A DNA stretch of 63,919 nucleotides, filler included, from Rhabdomonas costata (Eukaryota), in the NCBI GenBank assembly GCA_019059605.1. It is 42 parts of 42 records of this genome, joined end to end, with 100 filler letters (N's around TTAATTAATTAA, not from the genome) between each part and the next. Parts side by side here need not be neighbours in the genome. Positions count along the whole stretch, not along the records: positions 60,974 to 62,396 come from JAHMHO010016359.1; 41 more parts are not named here. One strand, written 5' to 3'. Of the stretch, positions 10,246-63,919 are shown piece by piece. The translations under genes and the position numbers were made by a program. Position 1 is the stretch's first letter. Each line of letters opens with the position of its first letter. The notes beneath the pieces are model-generated. The model was not told the origin of the DNA and searched no databases. It was given only the letters and a program-made list of their open reading frames with translations.

Positions 10246-13129
10246 TAGGAAGGAAGCGGGCGAATGCTGCGAGTAAGGGCATCTACTTGATTTTCGGGGC
10301 TTCAGGTTCATGTGGTCGAGGCATGCCCAACAACACTTCATGACACTGACGCACTGGAAGCAAGAGAACACTGGATGCACGAACCGATCGACCTCAAGGA
10401 TAGAAACAAGCGAGAACGCAGAGCGTTTCAACGATAATGTTTCCGGGTGAAAAGTAATATATTATATGAAGAGGAAGAACGAGAAAAGCGTTCAAACGCC
10501 AACCTGTTCGTAAGCGCGCCTCATTGCCAACGCGCTCAAAGTGGGTACCAACTCCCAGTGCAGCAGGGTGCACGGCGGTGNNNNNNNNNNNNNNNNNNNN
10601 NNNNNNNNNNNNNNNNNNNNNNNNTTAATTAATTAANNNNNNNNNNNNNNNNNNNNNNNNNNNNNNNNNNNNNNNNNNNNGTTTTTCTTGGGTGGTGTGA
10701 AAGCCGACTAAGAAAGGGAAACCTGTCTCTCAAAAAAATTTTGTTGTCCGGCCGCGGCAGGACTCCTTCTGTCATCACTGGTTGGTTGCGGGGGACTCAG
10801 GTCTGCAAGATTCATACCTTTGGCTTTGGAAGAATCTCAGGGAAAGTGCTTTTGCCTTCCATCCTGCTCGGAGTTTGGCCCCCAAACGATGTTTTCTGGT
10901 TCATCGTTGGATCTCCTCATCACTAGGTGAGGTGGAGACTTCATCCAACCAAATGCCTTCTCTTTTATCTGGTCACCCAACTTCTCCCTCTCCTTTCCGG
11001 GGAAAAAGGCAGCTCTTGCCCCAAATACCGGTGTCGTTCTTCCTGCTCGCTCATGAGCTGGACCACCTTGTGGTGCCGCAGTGGATGCTGAACGAGCCTA
11101 AGATCCTAAAAATCTTTGCTCTCAACCTCCCACCAAGCGCGGCGATGCACCCGAAGCTGGTTCCTCTTCCCTTGGGCATCAGCAAGGTTCGTGCACCGCG
11201 GTGAGCTGGTTTGCAAACGATCACGTTGTTTTCCAACCGGTAAATGTGCTAAATGATGGATTCAGCTTGATGCCTCCTCTGAACCGAATACTCCGCGTTG
11301 CACCTTTCCAACTATGAAATTCAAGCACACCCGTTGACGAACTTTGAACTCTGAGAGTGTGGGTGGTACCCTGCTCGCAGGATGTCTCCAGGAACTTTTC
11401 AGTGATGATCCGCGCCCACAACTTGGCATGCAAACTGCAAGCTTCGGAGTTGGTCTCTACAAAGCTGGACATGGGAGTCAAGGTAATGGCATTGGTGCCT
11501 CCACTAAATTCCCCGCATCCATCCCACCCTGCCTGCATGCTATTCCAGGCGGCAGTGCTTGGACACGAGTGTTCTCCCTCTGAACATGTTCATGAGATTT
11601 TTACACCGACCGAGTTTTTTTACCGGCCGAGAGAGCCTTTACAATGGGGTGAAGCCGAAGCTTGTAGTCTTTTCTGTTTCCAATTTTCCCGAGATGACAC
11701 GTTTTGGACGCTTCTTGACCTCCACGCAGCGGGGGCCGAAGTGAGGGGCCCAGGCTTTTGGCTCGCCACCAAACACCAAAAACAATTTGGATATCGCTGT
11801 TGTCTTATCTCGATTTCACTTTATTTGTATGGATCAAAGAATTACGGGTGATGAAATGCTTCCCTCGAAAAATAAAAACAGGGCACTGTGCGATACCACC
11901 GCCGGCTGATGATGATGCGGTCGCTTCGGCAGAACGGTCTCCAAGCAGTGACCCGGCAGGCCGGGTCGAAGGTACTGAAGGCTCTTGTGATTTCTCCGAG
12001 TGAACTCCCAACGCAGTAAGTGTTGGAAATTTGACTACTGCTTGCGAAGCGGACAGGTGTGGAAGGCTCTGCGGTTGCGAATAGGATCCATAGCCCCACC
12101 ACAANNNNNNNNNNNNNNNNNNNNNNNNNNNNNNNNNNNNNNNNNNNNTTAATTAATTAANNNNNNNNNNNNNNNNNNNNNNNNNNNNNNNNNNNNNNNN
12201 NNNNTTGTTTGGGTATACTATACAAGAGTAATTGCAAGAAACGGAAATGACCGCAGTAGAATTTTTGGTGTCAACAACGGTGAAGTACAGATTTCCACCC
12301 ATTTTAATTTGCTTTTTCTTTTTTTTTATACGTCTTTTTCCCTGGGGTGTGGGTGTCCCCGAGAAAAAAAGCGGGCAAGAAAGCGCACAATTAACGAGCA
12401 TTCATTCAGGCTGCCGTGGAATTATGTGTGTTGTTCACGTGTTCCTTCCCTCATTCGCTTGTGCCCTGCGCTGCGAACAACCTGCACCTGTTGCAGCTGG
12501 AAGAAAGCCCACAGGATTGTACAATATATATGAGCGGCCAAAAATGGAAGTGACTGGCCTGGGGTGCAAGGACCAGGGCGCAGCCGTTTCCTGTGCTTCG
12601 GCTTAAGCCCCCTTGGTGGCAAACCCCGAATTACAGACGCCCATGTAATGTGTTTTTGTGATGTATTTGGTGCCGATAAAGTCTGAACCTTCAAAATAGT
12701 CACTCCCACAATGAAATGTCGTGACGGTGAGGACTTCAAAAAGACAAGAGGAAAAGAGCGTGAAGTGCGAGGAGATGGAAATGTAGCGCTTCCTTCTGGA
12801 GTCGATTTCGATGGCAAGAAACACTTGGCTCGACTATGGAGATTAGGATCTCCCATTTGTTGACAGAGAGAATCACTCCAAGGACTCAGTGGCTTTGAGG
12901 TTTTGATAGTGACAAGATATCGAAAGAAGGTTCCGTTTACCTTTAGGAGGGAGGAGGCCCCTTTCAGGAAGTCTTTTCAAGGCTGGAAGACTTCTGATAT
13001 GTTTGCTTCCCTTGCCTCGCGTGCACGCTTGAAGAGATGAAACAACAACCACCACTTTAGAATACGCGGCCCCCTCTCCCCTTTTCTGGAGGGGCTTGCG
13101 AGTGTTTTCTTTGTTTTTTCTTTTTGCAG

Positions 13130-16778: not shown

Positions 16779-17835
16779 GGTTGTGGACACGGGGATTGGG
16801 CTCAGCGAGGCTGCGATGGGGCGGCTGTTCCAGCCCTTCAGCCAGGCGGACAGCTCGATCACGCGTCGGTACGGGGGCACGGGTCTGGGTCTTGTGATTT
16901 CGCAGCGGCTGATGCAGCGGATGCACGGCACGCTGCGAGTGAGCAGCGGAGGGGAAGGCCAGGGGTGCCGGTTCACGGCGACTGTGCCGTGCTTCTGCCC
17001 GGAGGCTCCAGAGGAGCTTCGTTCGAGCCTGGACGTGCGTGCGTCCAGCCTTCGTATGGTGGAAGGCTGGCACCCCCGTGTGGTTGTGATCGACTCGTTG
17101 GGGTTGAGGCGACAGGCGACATGCGAGCTGCTTCAGGTTGGTCACTGTGTTCCGCAATGCAGGAGAGGAGGGTTTTAGATGTTTTCGTAGGTGCGTAATC
17201 CCTGTGTTCTTTTTCATCCGTGTTTCGCCGATGTGCTTCGTTTCTTAGCTATCTGTGTCGTAGGGGGACCCTTGCCGTAGATTGTGGTATCGTGTTTTGG
17301 TCAGATAATGACTCTCCGCTTTGAAGCAGTGGACAGCCTGGAGGAGGTCATTAATGTTGCTCCGTCTTCCACTGCACGCCCCGAGCTCGAGGAGCCTGTC
17401 GTTGTACTCATCTTCCTCCCCAAGACTCCCTTCGAAGCTCAAGAGACTCTTTCCGCCCTTCAAAGGGCTCAGCAGCACAGAACCTTCCGCACTCTGCACG
17501 TCAGCCCTGTGAAGGTGAGCGGGTGGGAGGTGCCTTCGCCCTCGGTGAGCCTTCCGTTGACGCTGCCCAAGCTGCACCAGGCACTGAGCGCGATGTCCGA
17601 CGTAGACATTCCAACCCACGGTTCCTCGCGGCACATCCGTGCTCATGTGGTTGTGCCCGAGGCGTTCAGCTCGGCGAGGGTGCTTGTGGTGGACGATGTT
17701 CCGATGAATCGGCGAGTGCTTCGGCTGAAGCTGCAGCAGATGGGGATCACGGAGGTTGTGGAGGCTGGGAACGGGCTGGAGGCTCTTAGGGCCATCGAGG
17801 AGGCCGCCTTCATTTTCAGCGCGATACTGATGGAT
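16779..17835 (+). CDS. Hybrid sensor histidine kinase/response regulator, partial (exons 16779..17136 and 17305..17835)
   Basis: HATPase_c G1/F/G2 boxes (VDTGIG...[23 protein letters not shown]), then a degenerate receiver, then a canonical receiver RVLVVDD...N...EAGNGLEAL...ILMD; GT-AG introns. Confidence 0.93.
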
Positions 17836-18388
17836 GTATGTTTTTCTTGTGATGTAGGTTCCTGGACAGCCTGTCGTTCGATCATGATGAATTTGGCGGT
17901 ATCGGTTGAATCGGTTGATCATTCTGCCCTTCCAACCTGCAGGGTGTCCCACGAATTTCTTTACAATGTTGGTGGGTCTTTAGAACTGCAGGGGCGTGTA
18001 TTTTGGTGGGGCACATGGTGGGTAGCTATATTTCTACGAATGCCATTTTAATGGGTGCAGGACTGGCCTCCCATGCATGCGGTGCACTTGCGGTACAAAG
18101 GAAATACTCTGACAAAGGGAATACTCTAACAAACACTGTGCACGAGCTGACACCCACATATTTAGTTCGGTGTCATCTTCTCCGAGTACGTGCCCCAAAA
18201 AANNNNNNNNNNNNNNNNNNNNNNNNNNNNNNNNNNNNNNNNNNNNTTAATTAATTAANNNNNNNNNNNNNNNNNNNNNNNNNNNNNNNNNNNNNNNNNN
18301 NNGTTTTTTTTTCGTTTCATTGGGCACTGTGCAGGGTGTCTCTCTCTCTCTCTTACTCGCTCGCTCCCTCGCTCGCTCGCTCTCTCAG

Positions 18389-30689: not shown

Positions 30690-30831
30690 GCAGGCCCTGC
30701 ACACCAGCTTTCCAGTTCGCTAGTTTGGGTTGAGATTAAACAGGGAGATAACAGAAAATTATCAGGAAGGAGTTCGGAAAATGACAAAAAACAAGATAGC
30801 GAGACAAGATGGACAGAATCCAGGATGCCAC

Positions 30832-31455
30832 CTGATTCACCATGGGAGGAACTTTGGCGTCTTCCAGAAGCTGTTCAAGGTGGGGCACAAGAAAGTTCGA
30901 AACCCCAATGGCCCGGGCTCGCCCGCTGGCGTACACCTCCTCGAACGCCGCCCAGCACTGCTTCCGCATCTCCCGGTTCAGCGCACCGTTAGAGGAACGG
31001 AAGTTCCCAGGCCAATGCATGAGCAGCAGGTCCACGTAACCCAGCATCAACTCGTCCAGACACCGCTCCACGTCGTGCAGAACTCGGCCTTTCATGTCCG
31101 CTTGGATGGCGGGGTCTCTGATATCAATGGACTTTCCAATCCTACCAAAGGTATGTGAGGACGGTGGGTGGAACACCTTGGTGGTCACAAAGACGTCGCT
31201 CCTCTTCAGGCGGCCCGCGGCAAACTCCTGGCCCAGGGAGATCCCGAGGATTGGGTGAGTGCCGTATGCCAGTGCGGAGTCAAAGTGCCGGTATCCCGCT
31301 CGCAGGGCCATCGAGATCGGGTGCCACGCGTCCTCCGGCAGGAAGCCCATCATCCGGTCCTTGTGCTCGGGGTTGAAGTTTCCGAAATACGTACCGAAGC
31401 CCACGGCAGGCATCTTCACCCCATTGGAGAGGGTAAGGTACTTCATGCTGGACAT
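30832..31455 (-). CDS. Aldo-keto reductase family protein, first exon
   Basis: LSNGVKMPAVGFGT, GYRHFDSALAYG, RSDVFVTTK, LGYVDLLLMHWP, RAIGVSNF, PMVNQ then a GT donor; the catalytic D/Y/K/H tetrad is present. Confidence 0.96.
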
Positions 31456-33940
31456 TGGTAACGATGAGAAAAAAATCGCGAGGCCTCCCCCGAATAGCTG
31501 CAGGAATTAAATTCAGCAGACACACCAGTTAAGTCCCAGACAAGGACCACGCATACAGTGGAAAGAAGCAAATCACAGAACTGGACATAATTTTCCAACA
31601 ATCTGATAATGCGCTAAATGGCATCGGCCAGCGATAAAACTCCGTACAGTACAATGCACTCATTCGCAAACCCCACCCCTTCACACACACGTATCGAAGT
31701 GGGTTGTAATCACAGCGCGCGGTGCAAAAAATGGACATGTTCTTTACCTCCCAGAATTCTCCTTGGCGAAAGAAGTGTGAAGTGTTCAAACTCCAACCAG
31801 ATGCCGCGCATCCATCGGAAAACAGCTCAGGCCCGACTGCGACGCCGAAGGAGTATCAGGGAACAAAAGCGGGGGACATGCAATGGAATTCAAAACTCCT
31901 AGGTAATCCAACACAAAANNNNNNNNNNNNNNNNNNNNNNNNNNNNNNNNNNNNNNNNNNNNTTAATTAATTAANNNNNNNNNNNNNNNNNNNNNNNNNN
32001 NNNNNNNNNNNNNNNNNNGGCTATCGGCCTGAAGCGGCCCATTCCCACCCCAAGTCCTATCAGAGCTTGAAGCGAGGCGGAGGCAAAAGACCCACAACAA
32101 CTAAATTCCCGCAAGAGGCGGAGTCAGCAGGGGAAGTTTGAAGAACAAGGGGCGCGGGCCAGCGAGGTTGCAATTGGGAAGGCTGTTCCCTTTCCGAGTG
32201 GTTAGGGTCGAAGCGGAGGCGGCCAGGTTCCTTCTGAGGGATACGCGGTGCGGGAAGCGAATGGGCAAGTCGGTCCCCGTCCACGACAAATAGCTGATTT
32301 CAACGGCAGCGGCTATTGCACAACAATTTCTTGCACGATTACGCCTACGGCCGCATTAAGTGCTCACCCAAATTCGGGGGGCATGTCTCCCAAACATGCG
32401 GCGCTGCTGCGCAAAATCCCGACGTCATTTGTCATTGGGACGCGAGTGCTACAGAATGAAATCTGCTGGAGGACTTTTTGCGTTTCCGCAAGGAAGGCGG
32501 TTGATCCGCTAATATGCCCGGGCGCATACTGATGACGGGCATGGGCATCGGTCGAAGGGATGATTTCCCATCCCAGCATCTGAGCTTCTGCACACCATAT
32601 TCCATCAGTAAGACGGGTTCGACCAATAACAAAGCAATTCACAAGGGATGGGTTTTCACAGGTTTCGCGGACGGAGGGCCCAGGCCGATTGCAATCGCGT
32701 TATAACGTTTAGGATGAGAAAGGCGTAGGACGCGTAAGACTCAGGACCACCAATATTACACGTCTGACGCCGTTTGGCCACAAAAAGACCGAGATGTCTG
32801 CGACAGCGGGGGTCCAATAAACAGCAAAAAAAAAAAGAGCATGCCTTCAAGCTTAAGCTCCAGCTTGTTCAAGACGGGAATGTCAATAAACTCACACGTC
32901 ACAGTACGAAAGGCGAACAGTGGCAAAAGGAGAACGGAACTTCCGTAGATCCTTTCACAGAGACACACATGGATGCCGCAGGCTTCGTGCAAGAACCTTG
33001 AACCTAGAACCTTGAAAGACACACTACGCCCAGATTTTATTCCACACATTTCACATTGCATAGTGCACGCGAATGACTTCCACCATAAAGAGCTGCCGCC
33101 ATGCCGTGCAACCCTTTCGTTGCCGTGCAACCCCGTGCCAAGCTGTCCACTCGCGAACAATGTCATTGCAAAGGAGGATAAGCATGTCACAGACGCAATA
33201 CAACGACAACTCACTGATCGAAACCAATCGACGGACCGACTGACTGATTGACCGACCGGTCGACAACAGGAGAAAAGCCCCTGAAGTTCTGTGCTTCGGG
33301 TTCACTTTGCCACGAACGGGGGCAAGCCCGTCCGGGACGCCCTCCGCGAGGACGAGATCGTGGGGAGGGTCGCCCGGGGCACGCTCTCAGAGCGATACGA
33401 GGAGACCATTGGAGCGCCTCCGCCAGTAATCACCCCCCAACCNNNNNNNNNNNNNNNNNNNNNNNNNNNNNNNNNNNNNNNNNNNNTTAATTAATTAANN
33501 NNNNNNNNNNNNNNNNNNNNNNNNNNNNNNNNNNNNNNNNNNTTTTTTTTCGGAAATATCGGGTTTTGAGAAAAACGTCTGCATTGGGCCGGCCTTTTTT
33601 CATTTATGGTGAGGCTTTCTTTTTACTATTTTTTTTCGCATTTTTTTTTTGCAATTCTTTCCAATCGCAACCGACTCTGGTTTGTAGAATTCAGGACGCT
33701 TCGCTGCCCTCCTTCCCCCTGGGGGACGAAGCAAGTGCCTTCTGGGATTCCAATGGAAGATTTTCTGGGTTGGGCTTAAGCCAGAATCAGATTTCCATCC
33801 CCCCTCTCCAGCGTTTCTCTTCTTGCTCCTAAGCTGAAGGAGTTGCGTTGCTGTTCAGAAGGCTTCGAATCGGAGAGCGATAACCGAGCCTGTGCCTTGA
33901 TTGGGTTTCCAGCTTCATTGCCACACCTTTGGCTTCCATA

Positions 33941-51163: not shown

Positions 51164-52073
51164 CGAGAGGATCACTTTTCCTCTTAAAGGCAAAAGAGTG
51201 TTCACTTTTTGTCCCAAAACCCTTGAATCAGAGAGTATGTGAAATCCCGGTGTCCCCGGAGCGAAGCGTGCATTGGCGGAGATGAGGGATGTCAGAAACA
51301 CCCTCTGAGGACACCTTGAGGAGGGGCAGGATGTTGGCCAGCCCACAGACGTAGTTCGGGTAAAGGCAGGCCAGGTGGTCCACTAGCCAGGACAGCGCCT
51401 TCTTCTTCTGACTCTTGTGGCTCTGCGCCAGGCTTGTCCTTGAAGCATGAGTGAGAGGGGTGATTCAATGGAGTGATCAAATAAATGGGGCCACCAAGTC
51501 CAATTCTTCACTTAGCAGACCTCATATTTGGGATGGTCATTTGAATGGTCGCTCTGCGGGATTTTCCAGCATCCACTTGTTGCAACAATAGCATTGATGC
51601 CTTTCCACCGGGTGTTGCACGGGTGAAATTCCATTTTCAGTTTTCGCGCGCGCCGCCTTTGCGCTTCTGGGTTTCTGACCCGAAGTGCATATCAATTTTT
51701 TTGAGGTCTAGCACCCTCTCAAACCCACCCNNNNNNNNNNNNNNNNNNNNNNNNNNNNNNNNNNNNNNNNNNNNTTAATTAATTAANNNNNNNNNNNNNN
51801 NNNNNNNNNNNNNNNNNNNNNNNNNNNNNNGGGGTTGTGGTGGATGCGAAGGCGCAGAAAAGAAAACAACTCTTTTTCTTCTTATTCACCCAACGTTTGC
51901 GCTGCTGTGATGAAACGTTCAGTCATTTTCCAACACTCAATTGTAACTTAAGCGACATAAATTCAAGTGTTTTGGAAAAGTTAATGAAACTTGTTTCCAT
52001 ACTTAAACTTAGAGCACAAAGCCTGTTCGGGTGCACAGACACCACAAGGTTGAAGGAAACTAGTAACAGCCAC

Positions 52074-52490
52074 CTCAGCGAGTTTCTCTCCCGCATAGTG
52101 CAACGCGGTCTTGTAGTCCTTGTCCGTCGCATTAACGTCAGCGTTGAGATCCAGTAGTTGCTGAGCAAGCTGGGCCTGACCCTTGTGAATGGAATACATG
52201 AGTGGGGTCTTGCTCTCCTTGTCATTCGTATTCACCTCGGATTTCATCTCAATGAGCTTCTGAGCCAGCTCGCGCAGCCCCTTCTCCAGGGCACTGGCCA
52301 GCAAGGTCTTGCCTTCCTCCTCCTTCATAGTGAGGTCCACGGGCTCCTCCAGCAAAATCTTCAGGGCTTGGACCTCCTCGCCAGTTTTCACTAGCCCGTG
52401 CAGCACCTTGGCGTTGTCCGTCGGTCGGGTGCGCTCCTTCTCCGCGGCGGCAAGGGCCTCTGCCTCAGTGACCTCGACCAGCTCAAAGAC
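52074..52490 (-). CDS. Ankyrin-repeat protein exon
   Basis: GKTLLASALEKG...VNTNDKESKTPLMYSIHKG...LLDLNADVNATDKDYKTALHYA; 139-codon AG/GT-bounded exon. Confidence 0.95.
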
Positions 52491-60415: not shown

Positions 60416-61039
60416 GTGGGGGGGGGGGCAGGCGAGAAATTGTTCTCTCTCTTTCCACGTGGTGAAATTTGCACTAGCGGGGGACAGTTTCTGTCAAAAA
60501 TGGGTAGCTGCGTTTCTTCAGGCGGGAATTCCTGTGGCAATCCTTCCTTTCACACACACACGAGGCTGGTGTCCTTTCACAACTTTCACAAACACACAAA
60601 CACCGCCCAACCAGGCAAAACCCTGCGCGCAATGCGTCCAATACACACACCGCCCCCATCCTGGGTGTTATCCGGAAGTACTCGGAAGTACACAGTTGCA
60701 TCAAAATGGGCTCATTTTTCTGCAAAACTGAAACACGAAAGTTCCGGAAGGATGCCGGAAACACAAAAAACAGACGAGAAAAAAGGGCGAAAAACGCGAG
60801 TGAAAAATTCCAAAAAAAAAACATAAAGGGATGCCTGCTCTTTGAATGTGAGGCTCTTGTGAAGCCACCACCCNNNNNNNNNNNNNNNNNNNNNNNNNNN
60901 NNNNNNNNNNNNNNNNNTTAATTAATTAANNNNNNNNNNNNNNNNNNNNNNNNNNNNNNNNNNNNNNNNNNNNGGGTGTCGTGTTCGCTACCCGCAATCT
61001 GGTTTGGTTTTTGGTGGTGGTGGTGGTGGGGTGCCTCAG

Positions 61040-61867
61040 ATTTACCGCAGCGCTGTGAAGCCCCTGGAGTGGACCGTTCCGCGGCGCTCCCAGGACTGCT
61101 TCATCAAAATGATAACCGTGAAGTCCCAGAAGGAGCGCGTCGTAGGATTCCACATCGCCTCTCCGGTACACCGGCCTTGTCTTGCCCTTCCTCTGAGTTA
61201 AGTGTAATGCAGGACCTATTGCTTTGGCAGCCCTGCTGTTGCCGCGGCGCTTGCCTGCGATGATGCCGATTACCGTATGGAGCATGTGCACAGGTCTTCA
61301 AGGCTTTGGACACGTGAGGCCTGTTGTATATACAGAAGACCCCAGGCCTGCTTTGGCTTAGCGCTCTTAGATTGGACCTGCGTTGGTTTCTTTGGACACG
61401 CTTGTCAACCGAAACTCTGTCTTTTTGGTGTGAGATGCCTTCTCACAGGTCGCTGCGGAAATCACTCAGGCGGTTGCCGTGGCCATCCGCTGTGGGGCAA
61501 CAAAGAACGGTAATCGTCACCTTCAAACATACGCATACGCAAACGCACGCGCACTTCCTGGTGACCTGATAAAATTGATAACACATTACAATTGAGTCTC
61601 TGGAATTGGTTTCGGGACCTTGTGGATGGTCATTCCGTGCGCGAGTATTCGGCAAAAGCAAGCAATCGCAAGCACTTCACTTCACGGCGATTGTCTCTCT
61701 CTCTTGCCGTTGGTTGAACGTGAGTGTGCATTGCTTGTGGGTGGGGTCCAGACTTTGACTCCACCGTTGGGATCCACCCCAGCATTGCCGAGGAGATGAC
61801 CATGTTGACTCGCCCCGTGGGCTCTGCAGGGGGTGGGCCCAAGACTCGTGTGGGATGCTGAGGGTAA
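61040..61867 (+). CDS. TXNRD: High-Mr (animal-type) thioredoxin reductase selenoprotein, last three exons (61040..61165, 61449..61509, 61752..61867); TGA at 61859..61861 read as Sec
   Basis: Spliced: IYRSAVKPLEWTVP...CFIKMI...ERVVGFHIASP|VAAEITQAVAVAIRCGATKN|DFDSTVGIHPSIAEEMTML...VG-C-(TGA)-G-TAA, giving the GCUG terminus; SECIS downstream. Confidence 0.95.
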
Positions 61868-62244
61868 GCCCGCTGCCACTGCACAACCCGCAGTCGTGGC
61901 ATAGCCTTGGTTGCCTCTGAAGGTTAATTCGAACTTCGGCCTCTGCTTTCCTAATGAAGGGGCCGCACGGCACCTGGACGCCTTCGACTGTAGTGGCAGC
62001 AGCTTTCCCCCTTGGTTACACACAATCTCTCTGGTGGCCTGGGCACGCTCGTCCTTCTCGTCCTTTTTGGATATGTCTTTTCCAAATCTCTGAGCTCTGG
62101 GCTCTTTAGCACAATCTTTCTGAACCTGCACAGCCAACCTTTCCGCCCATTTTCTCCACTCTTCACTCTGTTGCCCGGGCTTCACCTCACCTGTCCCAAC
62201 GTTTTGCATCATCGTGTTTTCTGATTTTGGAAGTGGTGCTCTAA

Positions 62245-62323
62245 TGCTGCTCGTGTGACGGCGGTACGGTCAACCCCCCGTCCTAGTGGGGGTCCGCACT
62301 ATTTGCCTGAAGGGATAGTAGCA
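62245..62323 (+). promoter_or_regulatory. Eukaryotic type II SECIS element with GUGA core
   Basis: Helix I TGCTGCT/AGTAGCA; core GTGAC...TGAA; helix II GGCGGTACGG/CCGCACT(ATTT)GCC; apical AA 12 nt above the core; mini-stem CCCCC/GGGGG. Confidence 0.88.
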
Positions 62324-62973
62324 AGACGGAACACCTTCACACCTATTTTTGTCTGCACAATTCTTTCCACCCCACCCCACCCCGCCCTTTTTTAATNNNN
62401 NNNNNNNNNNNNNNNNNNNNNNNNNNNNNNNNNNNNNNNNTTAATTAATTAANNNNNNNNNNNNNNNNNNNNNNNNNNNNNNNNNNNNNNNNNNNNTATA
62501 TAAAAATGGACTTGTATGGTAGAAGGGTGGGGGGCAGGGGCTCGGAGAACGGAAAATTTCAACTTCACAGTCTGGCGCGCACTTTGAACGGGACGTCCTT
62601 CTCTTGTGCTTCTCTTTCTCTCAAGGTCCCGAGCAACGTCGAGGACTGTCGAACGAGGAACGTCGAGAAAGAGGAGGATGTCGCGTGCCCAGCATGCAAT
62701 GGGCATGGTGGAGCAGGGTGTAAGCTGTGCGAGGCATGTGGATGAGCCTGCGACAACTCACCCCCACCTTTCCTCCAGGAGCACTGTGTCTTCGTCGGTC
62801 TCCTCTCACTCTTCACAACTTTGAAGAAGAGAGGGAGGGAGGGAGAGAACGGTCCCTGCTTTTGGGCTTTCTGTGGGGATGCGTGGAAGGAGATCCGATT
62901 CGAATGGGAGTGTGGGGACGACTTATTAAGTGCCTGAATTGACGAAGGGGAAGAATCTTCTTGCGATTCTCAG

Positions 62974-63919
62974 GTCCTGCGCTGCCTCTTCGCGCTGAGG
63001 CCCCCCAGCGAGGTCTTGGAGGGCGCCAGAAAAATGTTTACCCCCGCATTGGAGGCGGACCCAACCTTCACCACTGATGCGCTGAACCGCCTGCGGGAGC
63101 GCGTGGTTGCCCTGCTGCAGGGCAAGCTATGCCCCAAGCTAAGCATCACAGAAGCGGAGCTGGAACGGTCTCGGCTGGCACTAAAGGTGTTCCAGGTCTC
63201 CCCAGAGCAGTTTGCGGCGCTTCACCTCTTCAGCAATGAGATTCCTTCCACGGAAGCCACCGCACAGCAGCCGAATCCCAAGAAGCCTGACCAGCTTTAT
63301 ACCTTGCTGACCACAGCCCAGCGAGCTGCGATTGGGGCGGACGCCGGTAACCCTGCCCTTGGTATCGTTCGGGCCCTGGCCCCCATCATTGAAGCAATTC
63401 AGAAGTATCTGGAGACAGGCCCCATTCCCAAAATCAATCCGGGGCAGGATGTGCTCTTCCGTGGGGCCAATTACGAAGTCTCTCTGGAGGGTGGAAAGCT
63501 GCCGTGGCAGTGCTTCTCCAGCGCCTCGCTGAGTGCCCACTCTGCTCGAGGCTTCCTGAAGCCGGGTGGGAGCCTCTTCGTAGTGCGGTCAGCTGATGCC
63601 GTGCCGATGTTCTTCCTCAGCGCATACCCGGAAGAGTTGGAGTGCCTGATACCCCCCACGGAGTTCCTGCTGCGCGATGCCCTGCCCGTGTCGTTGCTGC
63701 GGATGATGGGGGTGCAGGGCTCGGTAATGCTTCTGGAGGATCCCAAAGCGGCCCACAGGGCGGCGGCGCAGACCGGGCTTGCGTCGAAACTGCTTCTGCA
63801 CCGCAAGCTGGACTTTCTGTTCGAGCCTCTGCGGCAGAAGTACGTCCCCGTACGAGCCACCCACGACCGCCGACACCATCAGGTCCCCTACGAGCTGCGG
63901 CAAAAGCTTTGTTACAGTG
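62974..63919 (+). CDS. ADP-ribosyltransferase (ARTC, R-S-E clade) domain protein; long exon open to the window end
   Basis: 315 stop-free codons after a CAG acceptor: AALHLFS, QLYTLL...R, VLFRG (R at 63460), WQCFSSAS (63514..63528), ARGF...GSLF, LSAYPEELECL (ExE at 63634..63642). Confidence 0.85.

Follow-up and report, generated by a model that had tools for sequence, protein, structure and literature searches.

The window analysed here is a stretch of DNA of 63,919 nucleotides from the genome assembly of Rhabdomonas costata (GCA_019059605.1). Near its end lies what we consider, from the sequence, quite probably to be the 3' terminal part of a nuclear gene encoding a high-Mr (animal-type) thioredoxin reductase (TrxR) or thioredoxin-glutathione reductase (TGR) with a UGA-encoded selenocysteine (Sec) and a selenocysteine insertion sequence (SECIS) element in its 3' untranslated region (3'UTR). 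The table of N runs showed that 41 linkers of the form N44-TTAATTAATTAA-N44 split the window into 42 assembly pieces of approximately 1.42 kb each. The pieces are unrelated and their side-by-side order in the window has no genomic meaning. The whole gene end is confined to one of them, and the window DNA flanking it belongs to other pieces. The features of this piece up to the stop codon are the following:

60974-62396: single assembly piece carrying the gene end, 1423 nt, the 41st piece, with a linker on each side
61040-61165, plus strand: exon A, 42 codons, phase 0 to phase 0 (ag/ATTTAC ... TCTCCG/gtacac), dimerisation domain
61166-61448, plus strand: intron 1, 283 nt, GT...AG
61449-61509, plus strand: exon B, 61 nt, i.e., 20 codons and 1 nt, ending in phase 1 (ag/GTCGCT ... 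AGAACG/gtaatc)
61510-61751, plus strand: intron 2, 242 nt, GT...AG, phase 1
61752-61867, plus strand: coding part of exon C including the TAA (ag/ACTTTG ...)
61769-61795, plus strand: GIHPSIAEE with the HPxxAE acid-base pair, His codon 61775-61777 and Glu codon 61790-61792
61856-61864, plus strand: TGC TGA GGG, read as Cys-Sec-Gly, with the proposed Sec codon TGA at 61859-61861
61865-61867, plus strand: TAA, the real stop

The joining of the exons by their coordinates gave a spliced sequence of 303 nt, which consists of 100 codons followed by the TAA and has the TGA as codon 99. The first-pass annotation of this DNA had placed three phase-compatible GT-AG exons here, and both the sequence and the scripted joining bore this out: the reading frame stays open and in phase across the three exons, the splice sites are canonical, and there are zero frameshifts. 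The GC content of the exons is 0.60, and that of the two introns is 0.53 and 0.49. The motif GIHPSIAEE and the Gly-Cys-TGA-Gly-stop terminus that had been named together with the exons are also present, at 61769-61795 and 61853-61867, respectively. At the DNA level, the terminus is GGA TGC TGA GGG TAA, which would give the protein tail V-G-C-U-G. The probability of finding GGN and then a stop directly 3' of a TGA is ~0.003 when the bases are taken as uniform (1/16 x 3/64). It should be noted that the sequence GGG TAA GC at 61862-61869 is also a good splice-donor consensus (G/GTAAGC). The use of this donor would leave the in-frame TGA inside the exon, and therefore the question of Sec is unaffected by it.

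The comparison of the exons with the PDB, protein families, and full-length relatives indicated the family to which the gene belongs. The best PDB matches of exon A were TGRs (5W1J, E 5.4e-7), and the rat and human TrxR1 matched it with their residues 401-443 (E ~9e-7). Exon C matched rat TrxR1 at its very end, residues 466-499 of 499; the match takes in GIHP..AE as well as the terminal G-C-[C/U]-G, and GIHPSIAEE was aligned with GIHPVCAE of the rat enzyme. The His-Glu pair of TrxR functions in acid-base catalysis. When three full-length TGR-like proteins (P0012, P0020, and P0024) were used as tblastn queries against the whole window, only the three exons were found, in the right order: query residues 499-542, 543-560, and 563-596 correspond to exons A, B, and C, with no other credible match. 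Exon B was covered in this search from 61452 to 61505, aligned with residues 543-560 of P0020. A weak match at 12217-12303 had a stop inside and no real similarity, and was discarded. Residues 1-98 of the spliced product were aligned with residues 22-118 of another relative, P0013, with 51 of the 99 columns being identical. This alignment is gapped in just two places, by one residue near position 20 and by two in the tail, and neither gap falls at an exon junction.

Among the NCBIfam models, TIGR01438 (TGR) was the top match of both exon A (E 4.1e-7, positions 386-429) and exon C (E 7.8e-4, positions 451-485 of 485, thus reaching the last model position). Glutathione reductase was the second in NCBIfam, with an E value of 9.9e-5 versus 4.1e-7 for TIGR01438, and the trypanothione reductase model TIGR01423 was absent from the NCBIfam matches of exons A and C. 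The trypanothione reductases of the PDB matched exon C over no more than its first 22 residues (E 0.5). The Pfam domain PF02852 (Pyr_redox_dim) was found in exon A (positions 31-70, E 1.6e-4) with 22.3 bits, which is under the 25.3-bit cut-off because just 42 residues were scanned. The matches in the PDB, tblastn, NCBIfam, and Pfam and the alignment with P0013 thus support, at the level of sequence, the view that the piece encodes the C-terminus of a high-Mr TrxR or TGR, namely its interface (dimerisation) domain and its tail. The dimerisation domain of a high-Mr TrxR, as it had been called in the first-pass annotation, is supported by the collinear homologues and by TIGR01438 as the best family.

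The tails of the relatives were examined next to that of the piece. For this, a full HMMER scan of proteins was performed with exon A, and 17 of the 21 relatives returned were fetched. All five of those reaching the C-terminus (P0012, P0013, P0020, P0021, and P0024) end in "GC", and we therefore take them to have been cut off at the UGA by the gene callers. This fits the earlier expectation that ordinary annotation would truncate the protein of the piece at Cys; its catalytic selenocysteine would be dropped in the same way as in these five relatives. Metagenome contigs were also scanned and yielded 80 environmental loci. In 43 of them, the frame is uninterrupted up to Cys-TGA-X-stop, where X is Gly (38 loci), Ala (4), or Ser (1). 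Four loci end in CCG-stop and five in GCGGG[KR]CG-stop, a Plasmodium-type tail. In the other 28 loci, introns or other genetic codes interrupt the frame, or the contig ends before the tail. None of the 52 environmental loci with a recognisable tail ends plainly at GC before unrelated sequence. The nearest of the 80 loci is 56% identical to the piece over exon A.

Variants of the Sec motif were seen in L047, L059, L060, L069, and L056, four of which have Cys-TGA-Ala-stop and one Ser-Cys-TGA-Ser-stop. Meanwhile, in L013, L014, L027, L039, L042, L044, L045, L050, and others, TAA or TAG stands in frame and the homology resumes directly after it. To judge by these breaks, such TrxR-like loci look like those of hosts reading TAA/TAG as sense, as ciliates do.

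The 529-nt 3'UTR in the piece was searched with our own matcher, which looks for [A/G]TGA, an unpaired AA 11-14 nt on, a 3' GA, a helix II of at least 8 bp, and a helix I of at least 5 bp. Exactly one match was found. The candidate begins 388 nt 3' of the stop and has the following parts:

62245-62323, plus strand: SECIS-like element of type II shape, found by our own matcher and by covariance models R1 and R3
62245-62251 with 62317-62323, plus strand: candidate helix I, 7 bp
62255-62258, plus strand: candidate core GTGA, with the 3' core GA at 62309-62310 (T-GA-A)
62272-62273, plus strand: candidate unpaired AA; helix II is ~9 bp, with a mini-stem CCCCC/GGGGG above

The candidate core, TGAC/TGAA, agrees with the UGAN/KGAW consensus as given in a published account (PMC3753652). 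The background of the matcher was low: four other cores, all of them weaker, were found on both strands of the 60,311 non-N bases of the window (120.6 kb), and the antisense strands of the 80 environmental loci, 261,909 nt in all, contained seven, which is overall about one per 30-37 kb. Dinucleotide shuffles of the UTR passed the matcher in 3 of 2000 cases, none of which was equal in quality to the candidate. The four remaining hits, which lie elsewhere in the window (19145, 22045, 34190, and 34707, plus strand), had worse scores and were taken as false positives. The pieces with the hits 19145, 34190, and 34707 were also read with TGA as U and contained zero recognisable selenoprotein frames.

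When the matcher was relaxed to any NTGA core, it found elements in the 3'UTRs of 19 of the 43 relatives with a Sec tail, and in 18 of them the core was ATGA or GTGA. A GTGA core followed by CGG, the same as in the candidate, was found at L011:6456-6526, L016:3902-3976 (identical in L018 and L021), and L080:1775-1835. The occurrence of such candidates in the relatives therefore suggests that some eukaryotes from the environment use GUGA-type elements in their TrxR genes.

Two covariance models built without the window were also applied. Model R1, which was made from two GUGA elements, ranked 62245-62323 top on the piece (8.8 bits, E 0.24); it was judged too specific, as just 2 of 13 elements of the relatives were recovered by it. 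Model R3 was made from nine elements of the relatives, gathered by iteration. In the 3'UTR, R3 gave one match of full model length, at 62246-62322, with 11.2 bits and an E value of 0.0049, and the next match scored 3.7 bits. The same model was applied to 18 Sec-tail loci outside its training and gave 10 plus-strand 3'UTR matches scoring 9.4-26.5 bits. In the centroid fold of 62243-62326, the SECIS helices are present. Overall, we rate 62245-62323 as a probable but not proven SECIS element.

Other structures in the UTR were considered and dropped. The sole ATGA (61952) has an upper helix of ~5 bp, lacks the unpaired AA, and lies in a loop of the minimum free energy (MFE) fold. CTGA...GA at 61917-61977 has a helix II of just 4+3 bp and an AA at the wrong distance. 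The long hairpin directly 3' of the stop (~61872-62000) is no more stable than shuffles, and the z-score of the whole UTR is -0.44. A MAFFT alignment of the SECIS candidates gave no RNAalifold consensus.

The tail signature, the tails of the relatives, and the SECIS-like element together make it very likely, as judged from the DNA, that the UGA at 61859-61861 is read as selenocysteine. The Gly-Cys-Sec-Gly terminus proposed at the outset would accordingly be the right reading, given the Cys-TGA-X-stop tails in more than half of the environmental loci and the SECIS-like element in the 3'UTR.

One close relative gave an indication of constraint at the locus. The word-index protein search with exon A returned only P0006, and the same search with the frame of exon C found no match at near or longer lengths. 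P0006 is a 201-residue gene call on a 1418-nt contig and is 86% identical over exon A, with the similarity being lost exactly at the exon A donor site. The gene call of P0006 reads on into the intron, and the donor position is common to both sequences. As the match ends at the donor, it suggests that the exon, and not the intron, is constrained.

A number of observations weigh against the reading of the piece as a Sec-TrxR gene end with its SECIS element. The upstream exons, which would form the N-terminal nine-tenths of the gene, were found by tblastn neither on the piece nor elsewhere in the window, and this includes the exons for CVNVGC and for the FAD and NADPH domains. The matcher was designed after the candidate had been seen and permits a G before UGA, and the GUGA core of the candidate is rarer than AUGA. 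In the search of the whole window with R3, the candidate, with its 11.2 bits, had an E value of 0.6 and ranked fourth among 22 matches; the three matches outranking it are 29-37 nt long, and the alignments of the top two skip the interior of the model. The score also lies at the low end of the range of the held-out loci. The thermodynamic MFE structure of 62243-62326 is a different fold, and its stability is ordinary (z -0.73). Finally, Rfam found no SECIS family on the piece and the UTR, where SECIS_1 had no match even at E<=10. As for this last point, SECIS_1 was also run on 20 of the relatives with a Sec tail; it reached the gathering score in 0 of 20 and E<=10 in 4 of 20, and no element of the L011 or L016 type was listed at the latter threshold. 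Because SECIS_1 fails on Sec-tail relatives too, the negative Rfam result is uninformative.

If the gene works as its family does, the removal of the two GT-AG introns would give an mRNA encoding the last 100 residues in the piece. They would form the end of the interface/dimerisation domain with the His...Glu pair and then the flexible Gly-Cys-Sec-Gly tail. The kink-turn SECIS hairpin at 62245-62323 would recruit SBP2, EFSec, and Sec-tRNA(Sec), and the penultimate UGA would be translated as Sec. In the head-to-tail dimer, electrons would pass from NADPH to the FAD of one subunit and its N-terminal CVNVGC disulfide. From this centre, with the aid of the His-Glu pair, they would reach the Cys-Sec selenenylsulfide in the other subunit's tail, and the resulting selenolate would reduce thioredoxin. 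The Sec insertion, the N-terminal redox centre, the Sec machinery, and the enzyme activity are all suggested here by analogy with the established mechanism of the family.

The gene could be of the Sec-TrxR type and still be a non-working copy (a pseudogene or dead fragment) or come from a contaminating eukaryote. The small size of the piece (1423 nt), the absence of all upstream exons, its isolation from the rest of a very fragmented assembly, and the near-empty word-index searches (P0006 for exon A and nothing for exon C) would all fit this explanation. Yet the reading frame is intact and in phase through all the exons, without a frameshift and with canonical splice sites; the catalytic residues His, Glu, and Cys-Sec and the SECIS-like element are still present; and the conservation in P0006 covers the exon without extending into the intron. 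The GC content is also higher in the exons than in the introns, as in a live coding region. We therefore consider a dead or foreign copy unlikely. If the TGA were instead a plain stop, the protein would end in Val-Gly-Cys, and the GGG TAA and the hairpin would be a coincidence or relics of a lost Sec. A coincidence of this kind is hard to reconcile with the environmental tails, none of which ends simply at GC (43 Cys-TGA-X-stop, 4 CCG, and 5 Plasmodium-type), with the low chance probability of GGN and a stop directly after the TGA, and with the rarity of shuffled UTRs giving any SECIS-like match; on its side are the weak covariance score of the SECIS candidate and its absence from the Rfam results. 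Moreover, mammalian TrxR truncated at Cys loses thioredoxin reduction, and this was likewise counted against a plain stop, which we regard as quite unlikely.

The reassignment of UGA to a standard amino acid, such as Trp, which some trypanosomatids with a changed code use here, would give the tail Gly-Cys-Trp-Gly. Changes of the UGA code are described in Euglenozoa (PMC12153298), but the UGA of the piece is at the exact Sec position of the family, no in-frame use of TGA was seen in the pieces examined, and long frames elsewhere in the window, e.g., the 327-codon frame at 62938-63918, are open under the standard code. A SECIS-like element would also be superfluous with a reassigned codon, and this explanation appears very improbable. 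The 3' end of a Sec-encoding TrxR or TGR gene thus remains the reading that we prefer.

The predicted protein end was compared with known enzymes on this reading. It is like the mammalian TrxR1 (rat 1H6V, human 2J3N/3EAN) in being collinear with residues 401-443 and 466-499 of 499, in keeping HP..AE, and in ending at the same residue with Gly-Cys-Sec-Gly. It differs from it in sequence, with ~45-55% identity over 100 residues, in a tail linker that is two residues longer, and in the GUGA rather than AUGA core of the proposed SECIS. TGR (TIGR01438; Schistosoma/Echinococcus 2X8C and 5W1J) is the best family for exons A and C, and the full-length relatives P0012, P0020, and P0024 have an N-terminal glutaredoxin domain. 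In the gene studied here, such a domain, if there is one, would be encoded in the 5' exons, outside the window. Trypanothione and glutathione reductases share the dimerisation fold and the HP..E motif and match exon C weakly over its first 22-26 residues; unlike TrxR, they are without the Cys-Sec C-terminal extension, and they score below TrxR/TGR for exon A.

The Sec-TrxRs of algae and protists, such as the TR of Ostreococcus tauri, resemble the predicted protein in being selenoprotein TrxRs of unicellular eukaryotes. The nearest environmental locus is only the 56% identical one mentioned above, and the sole close relative is the P0006 fragment. Few eukaryotic selenoproteins are as widely distributed as Sec-TrxR. 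In a published account, TR is one of the 26 selenoproteins of Ostreococcus tauri, and it is described as widely distributed in Sec-using eukaryotes and as the only selenoprotein of C. elegans (PMC2375036). The gene end is real, but as a probable Sec-TrxR it is ordinary, and its enzyme type, tail, and decoding are textbook. The gene would also mark its host as a selenium user, for which tRNA-Sec and a complete set of insertion factors are to be expected in other parts of the genome. The 63.9-kb window itself contains no tRNA and gave zero Rfam matches at the gathering score.

To our knowledge, kinetoplastids have retained the Sec machinery but lost TrxR. The first-pass annotation had held that the gene would be notable in a euglenozoan host, as trypanosomatids rely on trypanothione reductase instead. 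This premise proved to be weaker than stated. Trypanosomatids are reported to keep the Sec machinery and three selenoproteins (PMC1557815; bioRxiv 10.1101/2020.01.28.922716), so that Sec machinery in a euglenozoan would be no surprise. Euglena gracilis is reported to possess not only glutathione and trypanothione reductases but also EgNTR2, an NADPH-thioredoxin reductase of the large type located in the cytosol (PMC11275057). Should the host be a euglenid, the gene of the piece would be the same or an orthologous large-type TrxR gene. No paper describing euglenid selenoproteins was found in the literature searched, and the string 'Euglen' is absent from the main text of 'The algal selenoproteomes' (PMC7539508). 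A euglenid or other euglenozoan host is hinted at only by the character of the assembly, which is extremely fragmented, has a low coding density, and is ~50% GC. With a euglenid host, the gene would be evidence that a Sec-dependent thioredoxin system and the trypanothione system exist side by side in Euglenozoa, and would make a modest point on the sorting of redox systems among euglenids and kinetoplastids. We put it forward only as a tentative and rather doubtful suggestion that the locus is explicit genomic evidence of a euglenid or euglenozoan having a Sec-dependent animal-type TrxR with a GUGA-core SECIS beside the trypanothione system.

Other pieces of the window contain parts of further genes. 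The last piece has a 327-codon open frame (62938-63918, plus strand) which runs off the window end and weakly matches NAD:arginine ADP-ribosyltransferase (PF01129), with 21.5 bits being just under the cut-off of 22.3 bits. Fragments of a hybrid histidine kinase were found in one piece at 16780-18051 (plus strand), with HATPase_c in one frame (E 6e-15) and a response-regulator receiver in another (E 1.5e-6, under cut-off). Since the two domains are in different frames, an intron or a frame change is implied between them. An aldo/keto reductase exon (PF00248, E 1.5e-23) was found at 30736-31506 on the minus strand, and an ankyrin-repeat exon (PF12796, E 5e-26) at 51981-52490, also on the minus strand and in a different piece from the aldo/keto reductase exon.

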